A DNA stretch of 64,000 nucleotides, from contig CM000153.2 in assembly GCA_000004695.1 (NCBI GenBank), forward strand, positions 2,560,001 to 2,624,000, written 5' to 3'. Numbering within the stretch: position 1 is the first letter of the stretch; each line of letters begins with the position of its first letter. The DNA is from Dictyostelium discoideum (lineage: Eukaryota). The notes under the pieces are model-generated. The model had not been told where the DNA came from. It worked only from the letters and a program-made list of their open reading frames with translations, and did no database searches. Shown piece by piece: positions 3,537-61,185 of this stretch. A program made the translations under genes and the position numbers.

Positions 3537-3610
3537 GCCTTAGTAGCTCAGTTGGTACGAGCGTGAGACTGAAGATCTTAAGGTCGCTGGTTCGATCCCG
3601 GCCTGAGGCA
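3537..3610 (+). tRNA. tRNA-Phe (anticodon GAA)
   Basis: The cloverleaf folds cleanly. The acceptor stem GCCTTAG pairs with CTGAGGC, the D-arm is GCTC/GAGC, the anticodon stem is TGAGA/TCTTA with loop CTGAAGA (anticodon GAA), the T-arm is GCTGG-TTCGATC-CCGGC (B box GGTTCGATCC), and the discriminator is A. The A box is TAGCTCAGTTGG. Confidence 0.93.

Positions 3611-4317: not shown

Positions 4318-4398
<81 letters not shown>
3660..4398 (+). mobile_element. 5'-truncated non-LTR retroelement 3' fragment (TRE3-like), ending in a ~78-nt poly(A)
   Basis: The segment is GC-richer and carries two overlapping out-of-frame ORFs (3672-4007 and 3995-4312). It ends in a long pure poly(A) at 4321-4398. Its start ~50 bp downstream of the tRNA gene is consistent with the TRE3 class of downstream integrators. 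Confidence 0.5.
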
Positions 4399-27191: not shown

Positions 27192-27842
27192 CAAAATGTA
27201 ATAACAACACCAACATCAACAGCAACAAAAACTACAGAATTAACAGAATTAACAGAATCAACATCATATGATCCAAATAAATTAGGAGGTGGAATTGATG
27301 AAACACTTAAAATTAATTTAGAAGATTTTAAACATGTATTGGATCCAGAGATGGTACCAATTACAGGATTACCATCATTTATTGAAGTTTGTTTAAATCA
27401 ACTTCACCATTTAACATCATTACCATGGTTAGTGATTGTACCAGTATTTACATTATTCATTCGTTCTGCATTATTTCCACTCTCAATTAAACATCGTATA
27501 AATTCAATGCGTTTACTTGAAATTAGACCACAATTAGATAAATTTAAAGAACAACAAAAAATCAATAGAAAGAATAAAGCATCAATTCAAGTTCGTGCTC
27601 AAACTTCACAAAAGATTACAACTCTATTAAAAGAAAAAGGTTGTCATCCAGTTTTATCCTACATTCTACCAATGGCAAATTTACCATTTCTAATTTCCTC
27701 CATAATTGCATTCCGTGATATGGCTGCAAATTATCCTTCACTCAAAGATGCTGGTATGCTTTGGTTTACCGATTTATCTCAAAGTGATCCAATTTTTGTT
27801 TTACCTGTTATTTGTTCTTCACTTTATTTAATTGCAACTGAA
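26982..27842 (+). CDS. Mitochondrial inner-membrane insertase OXA1/COX18 (YidC/Oxa1/Alb3 family), exon 1
   Basis: An N-terminal presequence-like region is followed by LPWLVIVPVFTLFIRSALFPLSIKHRINSMRLLEIRPQLDKFKEQ and ILPMANLPFLISSIIAFRDMA, which match the Oxa1 core. A GTAAGT donor lies at 27843. ORF table 26982..27974. Confidence 0.8.
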
Positions 27843-27869
27843 GTAAGTAACAATAATAATAATAATAAT

Positions 27870-27960
27870 ATACTAGAGGGTAGGGTGGGGGTGTGGGTAG
27901 TTTGTATGAGAAATTGCGCTTCTCTCTACCCCTTTACCCCTCTAGTATACTACATATCAT
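27870..27960. repeat. GC-rich imperfect inverted repeat inside the OXA1 intron (tatactagagggtagggtggg ... cccctttacccctctagtatact)
   Basis: Arms of ~12 perfect plus ~10 imperfect bp flank a ~40-nt spacer. The block is far GC-richer than the surrounding intron. Confidence 0.6.
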
Positions 27961-28001
27961 ATAGAGTGTACTAATACATGCTTTTTTTTTTTTTTTTTTA
28001 G

Positions 28002-28331
28002 TTGGCATTTTCAAAAAATACAAATCCATTAATGGTAGCACTTAAATGGGTATCAAGAGGTATGTCATTATTGTTGATTGCATTTAGTCCAACAATTCCA
28101 AGTATTTGTTATTTATATTGGATACCATCAGGATTATTTACAATTGCACAATCCCTTGCATTCAATTCAAAAAGAGTATGTAAATTTTTAGGTTTACCAA
28201 TATCAATTAAAAGTGGTGATTCAGTCATTAGTTTATTTAATGATGGAGAAAATAAAAAACCTGAAATTAAATATGCACCAGAATTACCATCATCATCAAA
28301 ATCTAAACCAATATTTAATAAAAAGAAATAA
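28002..28331 (+). CDS. OXA1/COX18-family insertase, exon 2
   Basis: A t-rich acceptor ...tttttag at 27999-28001. NPLMVALKWVSRGMSLLLIAFSPTIPSICYLYWIPSGLFTIAQSL matches the YidC/Oxa1 C-terminal TM core. A basic tail runs to the stop at 28329-28331. ORF table 28002..28331. Confidence 0.8.
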   Translation: MAFSKNTNPLMVALKWVSRGMSLLLIAFSPTIPSICYLYWIPSGLFTIAQSLAFNSKRVCKFLGLPISIKSGDSVISLFNDGENKKPEIKYAPELPSSSKSKPIFNKKK

Positions 28332-28525
28332 AGACAATTTTAAATTTACTTTATTATATTTTATTTTATGTACAAAAAACATTATACACATACACCACAT
28401 ACATAAGTACTAATGTACTAATACATTTATATATATATGTGTGTGTATGTGGATGTTGTATAAATATATCTTTATTTTTTTTTTTCTTTTTTATTTTTTT
28501 AATTTTTTTTATTTTATTTTTTTTT

Positions 28526-28643
28526 TTAATCTTTAGATTTAATTTCAATATTTGATTTTACATAAAAGAGTGGTTGTAATGGTTGATCTTGAGATGAAAG
28601 GTTTGGCGTTGTTTCAGGCGTTGTTTCAGGTGTTATTATATTA

Positions 28644-28705
<62 letters not shown>

Positions 28706-29110
28706 TATAATATTATTATTATCATCATTATTATTATTAGTATTAATACCAGTTGAATTTATATTTTGGGTTGCAGTGGTATTATTGGAAATGGTATTAG
28801 TATTGTTATTGTTATTTATATTGTTTGTATTTATATTTGTAATATTATTATTAATATTATTTCCATTGGTAATTCCAGTTTGTTTTAATTTTTGATTATT
28901 ATTATTATCATTATTATTATTAATATTTTTATCTTTATTTTTATTTTTATTATTGGATTTTGAATGGCCACATAGTAAAGTTTTTATGGAGTCATTCCTT
29001 CTATCCAGTATTAATGATTTTACAGTGATACAAACAGTAGCAACTTCTAATATAATTGATATTACTAAACTATACCATGCCAATGTTGGTCTCCAAATAT
29101 ATTCGATTCT
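28526..29110 (-). CDS. Paralog A, exon 2 (RIEYIWRPTLAWYSLVISIILEVATVCITV..., Asn-rich tail)
   Basis: An aaatag acceptor at 29111-29114, in frame with ORF-table 28526..29083. The TM helix comes directly after the W.P..W..SL motif. Confidence 0.6.
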
Positions 29111-30621: not shown

Positions 30622-30884
30622 TGAACGAAATATTTTTGTATTTATTATTTGTTTAAAAAAATTTTTTTTAAATTTTTTAAAATAAAATTAAAAAAAAATT
30701 AAAATTTTTTTTATTTTTTATATTTTAAGTGGTTAAATTAGTGATGTTGTGTTTGGGGGGGGAGGTTTAAATTTATATTGGATATAAATATTGTTTATAA
30801 GTATTTTATTTTATTTTTTTTAAGTACACATGTAATTATAATTATTTTAAAGATTTTTATTGTTTTTTTTTTTTTATATGTTGG

Positions 30885-37751: not shown

Positions 37752-38039
37752 GTAAGTTTCACTTGACAAATAACAGAAACAATGACAATAACAATAGCAA
37801 CATCAATAATAAAAACAGTATACATTTTGTGCTACAGATTATAATGATTATATATAGAAAGCAACTTCCACCACATCCACCACATCTTCATATTCAATCT
37901 CATTACCACCCACCCACCCTCCTTCCTCCCTTCCCCTTACTTACTATGTATTATTGTACAATAATAATTAATAAAAAACAGAGTGTATACTAATTTTGCA
38001 ATGTTTTATTTATTTATTATTTATTATTTAATATTTTAG

Positions 38040-53920: not shown

Positions 53921-54093
53921 ATGGCAAGAACTACAGATAGACCCAGAAAGGCGAGGGGGTCCCCGCTAACTGAAATTGATGTAATTTTAAAAAAATTCTT
54001 AGATTACCCAGAAGATAAGAAATTGGATTTCTTAAGTTATTTTAAAAATGTTTCAAGGTTTCTAACAAAAGAACACTATTTAATTATAAAAAG
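53921..54093 (+). CDS. Poly-Q protein of unknown function, exon 1 (MARTTDRPRKARGSPLTEIDVILKKFLDYPEDKKLDFLSYFKNVSRFLTKEHYLIIK)
   Basis: ORF table 53921..54112. A GTATTG donor lies at 54094. Confidence 0.45.
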
Positions 54094-57056: not shown

Positions 57057-57130
57057 TTAATTAATTAATTATGGAAATAAAAAATTCTTTCCATTATTTT
57101 TTTTATTTTTTTATTTATTTTAATTTTATT

Positions 57131-58104
57131 TTACATTTTTGAAAGAGAGAGTGATGGATCTGCTACTAAATCATCTCTTCTTTGTTTTGTTATTGGAACA
57201 ATACTTTTAAAACTTTTATGTGTTGCATCTAAATATTTTTTTTTTTTTAATTAAATATTAAAAAATAAAATTAGTTTTAAAATTTTTTAATTTAATTTAT
57301 GTTAATATTTTAAAATATTAATAAATAATTACCTCTAGTTAATTGAAAAATAATACTCTCAGTAGTAGTAATGAAAGCACCAGATTGTCTCATTCTTTCT
57401 AATGCAATTAAACGATCATTATTATTATTTGAAGAAACAGCATCAGAGAGAATATGAACATCATATCCATTCTCTAAGAAATCTAATGTTGATTGTAAAA
57501 CACAAACATGTGTTTCAATCCCAGTAATTAAAATTGATTTTAAATCTTTATGGTTTTGTTTTAAATGATTCAATACTTCATTGGTACACATTGAATAAAG
57601 TGTTTTTTCAAATATTTTAGTTTGATTATTTTCATTTCTTTCTTTTAATAAATCTTCAAATGTATGTCCTAAACCTTTTGGATATTGTTCTGTAAATATA
57701 ATTGGTACTTTTAATTCATTACATACTCTCATCTGTATATATATATATAAAAAAAAAAATTAAAAAAATAAAAAAATAAAAAAAAAAAAAAAATTTAGTA
57801 TCTTTAAATCATATCAATAATAATAACTTTATCCTCTTTAATTATCCTAAAAAATAAAAATCATACCATATATTTTGATTGATTAACAACACCATTAAAT
57901 TTAAATATATGATTTGCAAATTTACTTTGAATATCACAACTATTTTTAAAAATTAAAAAATAAAAAATAAAAATAAAAAAAATAAAAAAAAAATTAAAAA
58001 AAAAATTAAAAAATTTAATATGTTATAATATAAATTAGTAAATAATTTACTTACATAAATAAAGCAGAAGTTTCTGGTACAATTTTTCCAAGTGATCTTA
58101 TCAT
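57131..58104 (-). CDS. Isochorismatase-family hydrolase (ISOC1/ISOC2-like), copy A; 4 exons: 58104-58055, 57939-57867, 57732-57333, 57228-57131
   Basis: Colinear with human ISOC2. MIRSLGKIVPETSALF|ICDIQSKFANHIFKFNGVVNQSKYM|MRVCNELKVPIIFTEQYPKGLGHT...ILITGIETHVCVLQSTLDFLENGYDVHILSDAVSS...[58 protein letters not shown] aligns with SLGRVLPGSSVLFLCDMQEKF...VPVMLTEQYPQGLGPT...[34 protein letters not shown]...[34 protein letters not shown]. ORF table 57310..57732 is exon 3. Confidence 0.75.
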
Positions 58105-59789: not shown

Positions 59790-60293
59790 TTTTATATTTG
59801 TATTTTATTTATGGTGAATTTACAAATATTTTTTTTTACAAAAAAAAAAAAAAAAAAAAAAAAAAATTAAAATATTAATTTAGAAAACGATCTGCAAATG
59901 AAAAAAAAAATAAAAAAAAAAAATAAAATAAAAAAAATTAAAATATTAATTTAGAAAACGACGATCTGCAAATGAAAAAAAAAATAAAAAAAAAAAAAAT
60001 AAAATAAAAAAAAAATAAAAATTAATTTGGTCCGAAAGTAGGAAATGTTTCGAGTATTAGGAAAAAAAGTGAATTTTAATTAATTTGTTATTAAATTTGA
60101 TTTTATTTAATTTTTTTTAATTTATTTTTTTTTAATTTTTTTTCCAATTTTTTTTTTTTTCAGATCTGAATCTGTAAATAAAAAATATTTAAATTAAAAA
60201 AAAAAAAAAAAAATAAAAATAAAAATCTAAAAATAAAAATAAAAATCTAAAAATAAAATTATTTTTTTTTTTTTCTTTTTTTAATCAAAAATT

Positions 60294-60401
60294 TTATAAT
60301 TTTGAAAGAGAAGATAGTGATGGATTGGCTAACAAATATTCTCTTCTTTCTTGAGACAATGGAACTATATTTTTAAAACTTTTATGTTTTGCATCTTTTT
60401 C

Positions 60402-60440
<39 letters not shown>

Positions 60441-61185
60441 AATAAATAAAATAAATATTATTTATATAAAAGTAATAATGATGGTACTAAATAATTACCT
60501 TTAGTTAATTGGAATGTAATTGTTTCAGTAGTAGTAATGAAAGCACCAGATTGTCTCATTCTTTCTAATGCAATTAAACGATCATTATTATTATTTGAAG
60601 AAACAGCATCAGAGAGAATATGAACATCATATCCATTCTCTAAGAAATCTAATGTTGATTGTAAAACACAAACATGTGTTTCAATCCCAGTAATTAAAAT
60701 TGATTTTAAATCTTTATGATTTTGTTTTAAATGATTCAATACTTCATTGGTACACATTGAATAAAGTGTTTTTTCAAATATTTTAGTTTGATTATTTTCA
60801 TTTCTTTCTTTTAATAAATCTTCAACTGTATGTCCTAAACCTTTTGGATATTGTTCTGTAAATATAATTGGTACTTTTAATTCATTACATATTTTTATCT
60901 AAATTGTAAATTAAAAAAAAAAAAAAATAATAAAAAATTAGTATCTATTAATTAAAAAAAAAAAAGGACAAGTCTTCAAATCATACCATATATTTTGATT
61001 GACCAACTACATCATTAAATTTAAATATGTGATTTTCAAATTTACTTTGAATATCACAACTAATTTTAATAAAAAAAAAAAAATAAAAAAAAAAATCAAT
61101 AATTGTTGATATCTAATAAAAGTTTGAAAATTAAAAATTTACATAAACAATAATGAAGTATTCGGTGAAAGATTTCCTACAGATT
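60294..61185 (-). CDS. Isochorismatase-family hydrolase, copy B (paralog of copy A; same 4-exon structure, apparently intact; coordinates approximate)
   Basis: Exon 3 is ORF-table 60458..60757 extended to ...IKICNELKVPIIFTEQYPKGLGHTVEDLL. Exon 2 is CDIQSKFENHIFKFNDVVGQSKYM. Exon 1 is MKSVGNLSPNTSLLF followed by a GTAAAT donor. Exon 4 is DAKHKSFKNIVPLSQERREYLLANPSLSSLSKL*. Nucleotide identity to copy A across exons 2-3 is very high. Confidence 0.65.

Follow-up and report, generated by a model that had tools for sequence, protein, structure and literature searches.

The introns of Dictyostelium discoideum are on average 89% AT (PMC2483917), and a GC-rich inverted repeat within one of them therefore raises the question of how it came to be there and whether it serves the gene that carries it. 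The intron concerned is the only one in DDB_G0284883, which encodes a YidC/Oxa1-family insertase (PF02096) and is here called oxa1. It lies in a stretch of 64,000 nt from the D. discoideum assembly GCA_000004695.1 (contig CM000153.2, positions 2,560,001 to 2,624,000, forward strand), hereafter the window, which represents the AX4 allele. A preliminary description of this DNA had pointed to a second inverted repeat just past the oxa1 stop codon and had suggested that the two blocks, which share a short motif and bracket the last exon, might be a related pair. The account that we favour, and that we consider on balance probable, is a different one: the intron block would be a young, D. discoideum-specific GC-rich quasi-palindrome that is removed by splicing as a passenger, the 3′ block would have an independent origin, and the 13-mer common to both would be coincidental.

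The spliced 396-aa translation of oxa1 is 100% identical to the database entry, and a literature search found no paper mentioning DDB_G0284883 or the hairpin arm sequences. Within the intron, positions 27869-27903 pair with 27911-27949 over 31 bp, five of them G-U pairs, and the outermost 12 bp are perfect (TATACTAGAGGG / CCCTCTAGTATA). With a GC content of 47%, compared with 33% for the entire intron, the hairpin is indeed untypical of the AT-rich introns of Dictyostelium, as had been claimed. All 90-nt segments of the window were folded on both strands in 5-nt steps (n = 25,564; mean -8.1, standard deviation 4.8 kcal/mol). The intron hairpin ranked first by stability at -38.5 kcal/mol, which bears out the presence of a hairpin-forming inverted repeat. 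The second rank was taken by a hairpin in the spacer downstream of oxa1 (28379-28459, about -29 kcal/mol), so that the second inverted repeat past the stop codon was also correctly recognized. Compared with shuffles of their own sequences, both hairpins are only moderately unusual (z -2.3 to -3.8). Some details of the preliminary description had to be corrected: the sequence ccacc, which it quoted, is absent from the C-rich arm in AX4, and its motifs were found one to four bases away from the positions given, with gagtgtactaatacatgc at 27964-27981 and gtactaatgtactaatacat at 28407-28426. The intron was also considered as an alternative coding exon, and this was rejected because an in-frame stop lies inside the AX4 branch site and because the intron measures 159 nt in AX4 and 166 and 169 nt in two wild isolates.

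Comparison with other dictyostelids separates the age of the intron from that of the hairpin. The intron position (between ATE and LAF of the protein, phase 0) is common to D. discoideum, D. citrinum, D. dimigraforme and Heterostelium album, and the oxa1 intron is therefore ancient. In D. purpureum the intron was lost, and in Cavenderia fasciculata and Polysphondylium violaceum an intron occurs at another position in the gene. The orthologous introns are 101 nt long in D. citrinum, 115 nt in D. dimigraforme and 75 nt in H. album, and the other dictyostelid introns of the gene are AT-rich and span 68-115 nt. The GC-rich hairpin is absent from the orthologous intron of these three species; when folded, the introns of D. 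citrinum and D. dimigraforme were unstructured and no better than shuffles (z +1.17 and +1.09). Without its 83-nt block the AX4 intron would measure 76 nt, well inside the 68-115 nt range. Since this remainder has the size of an ordinary intron, we conclude that the block was gained in the D. discoideum lineage.

Two wild D. discoideum isolates, L007 (GCA_054859385.1) and L008 (GCA_054859355.1), carry the hairpin in a more stable form, with folding energies of -51.3 kcal/mol, which none of 200 shuffles attained (z -6.05), and -47.0 kcal/mol (z -4.63) and stems of 30-33 bp. In these isolates both strands fold about equally well as RNA, those of L007 also as DNA, and the block is therefore a true inverted repeat at the DNA level. 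The 3′ arm in AX4 is missing about 7 nt of C-run sequence found in the other isolates; the AX4 allele is a decayed version of the hairpin. Logan contigs (L009-L011) were identical to AX4 and hence uninformative. Divergence was measured on a 5.3-kb alignment around oxa1 from AX4, L007 and L008, in which the hairpin diverges faster than any other segment. Between L007 and L008 the hairpin has an identity of 0.907, compared with about 0.98 for flanking non-coding sequence and 0.994-0.998 for the exons; between AX4 and the wild isolates the values are 0.83-0.89 for the hairpin and about 0.95 for flanking non-coding sequence. The changes in the G-run arm are exchanges among G, T and A, and those in the other arm are T/C swaps and shifts in C-run length; in addition, the loop has a deletion of 7-8 nt. 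When the upkeep of pairing was evaluated against a mutation null of local composition, which is the fairer one for G-run and C-run arms, the isolates gave p = 0.09-0.11 and AX4 was compatible with decay (p 0.15-0.23). We therefore do not claim selection for the structure.

From these comparisons the following scenario may be drawn. A foldback would sit inside an ancient and otherwise ordinary AT-rich intron and would form a stem-loop in the pre-mRNA, of about 31 bp in AX4 and of 30-33 bp and greater stability in the wild isolates. Some 83 of the 159 nt would thereby be looped out, and the remaining ~76 nt would keep GTAAGT, TACTAAT, T18 and AG. This remainder has the size and the layout of the orthologous introns, from which we infer that splicing removes the block as a tolerated passenger. 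Substitutions and small indels alter the G-run and C-run arms of the block at a fast pace. The block itself may have originated by a foldback or MITE-like insertion (MITE, miniature inverted-repeat transposable element) or by growth in place.

The first of these origins can be stated more specifically: in the D. discoideum lineage, a copy of a MITE or foldback transposon, some 80-90 bp long and bounded by the terminal inverted repeats TACTAGAGGG(G)...(C)CCCTCTAGTA, would have entered the intron at a TA dinucleotide. The size is MITE-like and the terminal repeats match without error over 10-12 bp (the 12 bp mentioned above in AX4; 11 bp in L007, TACTAGAGGGG / CCCCTCTAGTA), the two strands fold equally in the wild isolates, and the block is absent at the orthologous site of the sister species, the D. 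discoideum intron being longer by about the length of such an element. The flanks in AX4 can be read as TA TACTAG...CTAGTA TA, with a TA on either side of the block, but in both L007 and L008 the left flank is TT and the right one TA. Moreover, a search with all 10-mers of the hairpin and with the G-rich arm at up to three mismatches detected no second copy in the 64-kb window and about 50 kb of dictyostelid loci (together ~110 kb, less than 0.5% of the 34-Mb genome). In metagenome contigs, a collection without the D. discoideum genome, a 12+12 inverted-repeat pattern had 0 matches and a 10+10 pattern four chance matches, in contigs of 39-52% GC unrelated to Dictyostelium; loop-plus-arm probes had 0 matches in prokaryotic-genome and viral contigs, again without the D. 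discoideum genome. A literature search for thug-S elements found nothing. The introns of D. citrinum and D. dimigraforme are 44-58 nt shorter and alignable at the splice sites only, so that no precise empty site can be defined or demonstrated. With these points on both sides, we consider a transposon copy rather unlikely.

The idea of a MITE-like insertion pair thus survives in one half: the intron hairpin is lineage-specific and insertion-like, whereas the two blocks are unrelated. Their arms have no similarity and further copies were absent from the window and the compared loci, for which reasons a related pair or a dispersed family was rejected. Among the chance matches of the metagenome scan, those in two JGI contigs (L014, 4761-4846; L015, 6452-6537) are arrays of a GAGGGGAGTG-type unit organized as inverted repeats; these contigs have about 50% GC, come from different samples and are unrelated to Dictyostelium.

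What connects the two blocks is the motif that had been noticed in both, and it is real: an exact 13-mer, TGTACTAATACAT, occurs at 27967-27979 and again at 28414-28426. The placement differs, as the first copy lies 17 nt 3′ of the intron hairpin and the second inside the apical loop of the 3′ hairpin. At least two matches to the 13-mer were present in 3 of 100 whole-window shuffles, and when the two segments were resampled by a Markov model, a complex 13-mer was shared in 13 of 2000 cases; the same held for 8 of 316 real segment pairs of equal spacing in this low-complexity window. Such sharing is uncommon, yet post hoc not remarkable.

The intron copy is an ordinary branch site. Its TACTAAT is found 21-32 nt upstream of the 3′ AG and directly before the poly-T tract, in agreement with the pattern of a wCTAAy box 15-40 nt upstream of AG accompanied by poly-T. 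ACTAAT is the commonest branch hexamer of D. discoideum, with 18.7% of 17,300 introns (PMC2483917). Elsewhere in the window, too, introns have TACTAA(T/C) boxes ahead of a T tract and AG, and equivalent boxes exist in introns of other species that are either orthologous or neighbouring (tttactaagc in D. citrinum, atactaaaac in D. dimigraforme, aatactaacgc in P. violaceum). An exact match to the 13-mer is restricted to AX4, the corresponding site reading TGTGCTAATATAT and TGTGTTAATATAT in the wild isolates. These carry a separate TTACTAAT about 20 nt upstream of a weak TGCTAAT or TGTTAAT. In AX4, a gap of 9 nt has removed the upstream box, and the weak site downstream now has the consensus TACTAAT. 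The differences among the isolates imply that the identity of the two 13-mers arose in the AX4 lineage through two substitutions at the branch site.

In the spacer, an ACTAAT-containing stretch is common to the isolates (aatgtactaatacat in L007, tactaatgtctaatacat in L008), and D. citrinum and D. dimigraforme have only AAATACATTTA at this site. The spacer copy would accordingly be part of an older ACTAAT-containing stretch, and the intron copy a branch-site consensus reached in AX4 by two point changes. Hence, the proposed pair bracketing the last exon dissolves: the arms share no sequence, the 13-mer is a branch site, and its exact match is specific to AX4.

The 3′ block would then be an independent low-complexity palindrome of the CA/TG type between convergent genes. 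It occupies a spacer of 194 nt between the convergent stop codons (28331 and 28526), and syntenic minus-strand neighbour genes were called in D. citrinum, D. dimigraforme and both wild D. discoideum isolates. Its arms consist of ACAT/ACAC-type repeats opposite ATGT/GTGT-type repeats. All three D. discoideum isolates have the hairpin, and in the two wild ones the minus strand folds better (-27.5 and -30.0 kcal/mol) than the plus strand (-19.9 and -16.5 kcal/mol). The homologous spot of D. citrinum folds into a weaker hairpin (plus strand -16.7 kcal/mol, z -2.31; minus strand -21.2 kcal/mol), which is the second most stable structure in a locus of 7.3 kb. In D. dimigraforme the spacer fold was not significant (z -1.09).

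Just past the oxa1 stop codon and upstream of the hairpin, a 16-nt block, TTTTATTTTATGTACA, is near-invariant in D. discoideum, D. citrinum and D. dimigraforme, and the spacer around it as well as the intron are unalignable among these species. The block may be a candidate 3′-end processing signal. An AATAAA at 28327-28332 overlaps the oxa1 stop codon; this overlap and the near-invariant block together suggest that the spacer hairpin may coincide with both poly(A) sites or follow them. The hairpin might play a part in 3′-end formation or in the separation of convergent transcripts. The 3′ block would then be functional for the convergent gene pair, either as a hairpin limiting read-through at or just beyond the poly(A) sites or as an element in the 3′ untranslated region of the neighbour. 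The constant position in three D. discoideum isolates and D. citrinum, the better folding of the minus strand in three of these four sequences, the AATAAA about 50 nt upstream of the hairpin and the conserved TTTTATTTTATGTACA all agree with such a function. However, low-complexity arms of this kind pair readily, the hairpin of D. dimigraforme does not differ from expectation, and the Rfam matches of the spacer are to microRNA (miRNA) models of TG/CA-palindrome families far under threshold. Covariation in the 3′ hairpin was considered and rejected, as the three-species consensus fold is weak (-5.6 kcal/mol) and covariation is meaningless in low-complexity sequence. We regard a function of the 3′ block for the gene pair as unlikely.

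Known classes of structured RNA offer no counterpart for either block. At the gathering score, Rfam had no match at the oxa1 locus, a transfer RNA (tRNA) at 3537-3610 being the sole hit in the whole window. At E ≤ 10, the best matches in 27700-28600 were to miRNA hairpin models, with 16-34 bits against thresholds of 58-105. These weak, sub-threshold matches appear compositional, for the spacer hairpin because the models belong to TG/CA-palindrome families. Class I RNAs of Dictyostelium are characterized by a short terminal stem, an 11-nt motif and an upstream DUSE, and small nucleolar RNAs (snoRNAs) by C/D or H/ACA boxes with a guide pocket. No snoRNA model exceeded 19 bits in 27700-28600, the intron has no CUGA D box and the stem no large internal loop. 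Inspection of both strands detected no CCCA(C/T)AA box within 100 nt. Neither snoRNA boxes nor a pseudouridylation-type pocket, a DUSE or class I features were recognized.

Nevertheless, a miRNA-like nature of the intron hairpin deserves attention. Only two intronic miRNA loci are recorded in D. discoideum, mir-1180 in DDB_G0293106 and mir-7102 in DDB_G0284713 (Liao et al. 2018, PMC6161686), and the oxa1 hairpin could be a third, or a proto-miRNA, that is processed as a pre-miRNA-like substrate by the Dicer-like enzyme DrnB. With few exceptions, the miRNAs of dictyostelids are of recent origin, confined to one species and poorer in AT than the DNA around them, and their precursors mostly measure 75-125 nt (Edelbroek et al. 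2024, PMC11014262); for this reason we retain the proto-miRNA reading at a low probability. With 83-96 nt, the hairpin fits the published pre-miRNAs, which are GC-enriched and young (PMC11014262). The stems have 30-33 bp, and the folding energies (AX4, -0.43; L007, -0.53; L008, -0.51 kcal/mol/nt) pass the limit for miRNA precursors (< -0.2 kcal/mol/nt, PMC6161686). Validated D. discoideum loci range from -0.51 to -0.73 kcal/mol/nt (PMC6161686 Table S1); the wild isolates reach the lower end of this range, but AX4, which is the strain used for sequencing, is weaker than every validated locus in that table. The sense strand of AX4 is favoured in folding and the weak Rfam matches are all to miRNA hairpin models, although at 16-25 bits they stay far under the gathering thresholds.

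The small-RNA data point the other way. Deep surveys of AX2/AX4 did not report the locus and name two intronic loci only, and Table S1 of PMC6161686 does not list the oxa1 intron. The criteria of that table include 10 or more reads for each of 5p and 3p, a 3′ overhang of 0-4 nt, homogeneous 5′ ends and loss in drnB- cells. The arms of the intron hairpin are not in the supplement of PMC6161686, and those of the intron and spacer hairpins are not in the supplements of PMC11014262, in which the positive control mir-1177 was found. The primary sequence, including the arms, also diverges very strongly between isolates. We therefore think it quite improbable that the intron hairpin is a miRNA locus.

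The G-run arm has a further property. It contains a canonical G-quadruplex motif on the coding strand, GGGTAGGGTGGGGGTGTGGG, which is the only motif of the form G3+N1-7 x4 in the window and scores within the range applied to such motifs by G4Hunter (≥ 1.5-2.0). In D. discoideum, 249 motifs have G4Hunter scores of at least 2.0, 62 of them in introns (Saad et al. 2019, PMC6511855); the intronic motifs are about 3.4-fold enriched, on the non-coding strand (PMC6511855). Since the G-run arm faces a C-run arm, a hairpin or cruciform would compete with the quadruplex, and when quadruplexes were allowed in ViennaRNA the hairpin remained the predicted ground state. It is conceivable that hairpin and quadruplex act in cis on oxa1, through elongation, splicing efficiency or intron retention, and maybe jointly with the 3′ hairpin. 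Such a function would accord with the singularity of the motif in 64 kb, its G4Hunter score of 2.0, its location on the coding strand, an uncommon orientation among introns of D. discoideum, the flanking of the last exon by the two strongest structures of the window, and the retention of the hairpin in three isolates despite high divergence. However, nothing is conserved beyond D. discoideum although the intron is ancient, the AX4 copy has decayed, pairing is not significantly maintained under the more conservative null of local composition, RNA folding predicts the hairpin and not the quadruplex as the ground state, and the motif that would link the two blocks is AX4-specific in the intron. 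A cis-regulatory block is thus very unlikely in our judgement.

Two other G- or C-rich sites were observed in the window. The intron of a Rab-like GTPase gene (37753-38039, plus strand), after whose 3′ splice site WDTAGQE is encoded, has a C-rich block, ccacccacccaccctccttcctcccttcccc, at 37894-37949 with a G4Hunter score of -2.04, which corresponds to a quadruplex motif on the non-coding strand, the kind typical of D. discoideum introns (PMC6511855). With the Rab-like and oxa1 introns, two of the ~62 top-scoring intronic motifs of the genome are located within 10 kb. As a second member of a hairpin family the Rab-like intron was rejected, because it forms no hairpin (z -1.27) and the likeness is one of pyrimidine-rich low complexity only. 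A run of eight G is part of tttggggggggaggttt at 30737-30781 (G4Hunter 1.64), within a stretch of about 12% GC.

Several observations weigh against the passenger reading. It draws on the absence of evidence for a function and on the lack of conservation. When a mutation null of global composition is used, the isolates are more stable than expected (p = 0.006-0.027, i.e. in the top 0.6-2.7%), which leaves room for selection on pairing. The two most stable structures of 64 kb are only about 430 nt apart, a coincidence of ~1-2% if they are independent and neutral. Folding in AX4 favours the sense strand (-38.5 kcal/mol) over the antisense strand (-31.1 kcal/mol), an asymmetry that results from the ~7 nt missing from the C-run arm and the five G-U pairs. 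Finally, the G-rich strand is the coding one, in contrast to the non-coding bias reported for intronic motifs (PMC6511855). Read together in favour of a function, the data would describe a young, isolate-variable functional RNA element, either a proto-miRNA processed by DrnB or a coding-strand hairpin/G-quadruplex switch that tunes oxa1 splicing or expression, with a fast evolution caused by arm-to-arm templated repair or compensatory change and not by neutrality. In that case, the transcript neighbourhood could include the 3′ hairpin as another structured element. We give this possibility little credence and return to the passenger: the intron block is probably harmless, a lack of function that we infer from the comparisons above.

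If the block is a passenger, the value of the result is chiefly corrective, in that the shared motif is a branch site and the hairpins are unrelated. Beyond this, the locus would provide a dated gain of a GC-rich quasi-palindrome in an ancient intron of a genome whose introns are 89% AT, and its three allelic states could be used in studies of palindrome and G-quadruplex instability. At least one of the rare intronic quadruplex motifs of D. discoideum is one half of an inverted repeat, which bears on the interpretation of such motifs. The isolates also document branch-site turnover within a species, with one TACTAAT lost and a nearby weak site upgraded. Should small RNAs arise from the hairpin, the locus would capture the birth or death of a miRNA hairpin within a species.

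The features of the locus are compiled in Table 1.

Table 1. Positions of the features at the oxa1 locus. Coordinates refer to the window unless another sequence is named; MFE, minimum free energy.
Feature	Position	Strand	Basis and details
Exon 1 of DDB_G0284883	26982-27842	+	Spliced translation, 396 aa
Sole intron, 159 nt, phase 0	27843-28001	+	GTAAGT 27843-27848; AG 28000-28001
GC-rich imperfect palindrome (stem-loop)	27869-27949	+	Folding, MFE -38.5 kcal/mol
Canonical G-quadruplex motif GGGTAGGGTGGGGGTGTGGG in the 5′ arm	27878-27897	+ (coding strand)	Motif search; G4Hunter maximum 2.0
C/T-rich 3′ arm (cttctctctacccctttacccctctagtata)	27915-27954	+	G4Hunter -1.48
Branch-site region	27952-27981; L007 2951-3003; L008 2960-3010		Isolate alignment
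13-mer TGTACTAATACAT, copy 1, holding TACTAAT 27969-27975, followed by T18 27982-27999	27967-27979	+	Sequence inspection
Exon 2	28002-28331	+	Stop codon 28329-28331
TTTTATTTTATGTACA block, just past the oxa1 stop codon, upstream of the hairpin	28355-28375; L001 ~4352-4372; L002 ~4322-4340		
CA/TG-type imperfect palindrome, arms 28384-28404 and 28438-28457	28379-28459	.	MFE -28.8 (+), -29.4 (-) kcal/mol
GTACTAAT twice, then ACAT, apical part of the 3′ hairpin; 13-mer copy 2 at 28414-28426	28407-28426	+	Sequence inspection
Last exon of the convergent neighbour gene	28526-29083	-	Stop codon 28526-28528; product without Pfam match

Elsewhere in the window, a GC-rich island at 53922-53982 was considered as a non-coding RNA and rejected, as it is the start of a coding sequence. 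A tandem duplication links 57097-57983 to 60263-61103 at a spacing of 3166 nt; a stretch of 300 nt is 97% identical and other pieces are 73-87% identical, and identical strong hairpins occur in both copies on the minus strand (57431-57520 and 60601-60690). This is probably a recent gene duplication. The tRNA gene at 3537-3610 is on the plus strand and scored 62.5 bits in Rfam. From 1.2 to 1.8 kb upstream of it, the segment 1746-2308 is GC-richer, folds with -26 to -28 kcal/mol and includes a patch of 55% GC (2258-2308). It might be a candidate for a tRNA-targeted retroelement of the TRE type.

GC-rich mobile palindromes are familiar from AT-rich genomes, for example as the GC clusters of yeast mitochondrial DNA and as miniature inverted-repeat elements. 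The oxa1 block resembles them as a short GC-rich palindrome with perfect terminal inverted repeats in an AT-rich non-coding setting that is present or absent between close species. It differs from them by the lack of dispersed copies in the searched DNA, by an ambiguous target-site duplication and by its residence in a nuclear spliceosomal intron. With mir-1180 and mir-7102 (PMC6161686) the block has in common that a species-specific hairpin, less AT-rich than its surroundings, lies on the sense strand in the intron of a protein gene, and the energy per nucleotide and the length of the wild-isolate hairpins are comparable to theirs. However, these two loci span 149-153 nt, whereas the oxa1 hairpin is shorter, has low-complexity G-run and C-run arms and no reported small RNAs. 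Like the intronic G-quadruplex motifs of D. discoideum (PMC6511855), the G-run arm is a cluster of G-runs in an AT-rich intron and belongs to the top G4Hunter class, but here it opposes a complementary C-run arm, and inverted repeats are not mentioned in that paper. The last comparison is with the spliceosomal branch site. The spacer copy of the 13-mer departs from it, as it has no splice context and no good upstream 5′ splice site, and the first AG past it is ~110 nt downstream, beyond the stop codon of the neighbour. The intron copy with its TACTAAT, in contrast, shows no departure from such a site (consensus UACUAAC in yeast; ACTAAT in D. discoideum, Irimia and Roy 2008, PMC2483917).

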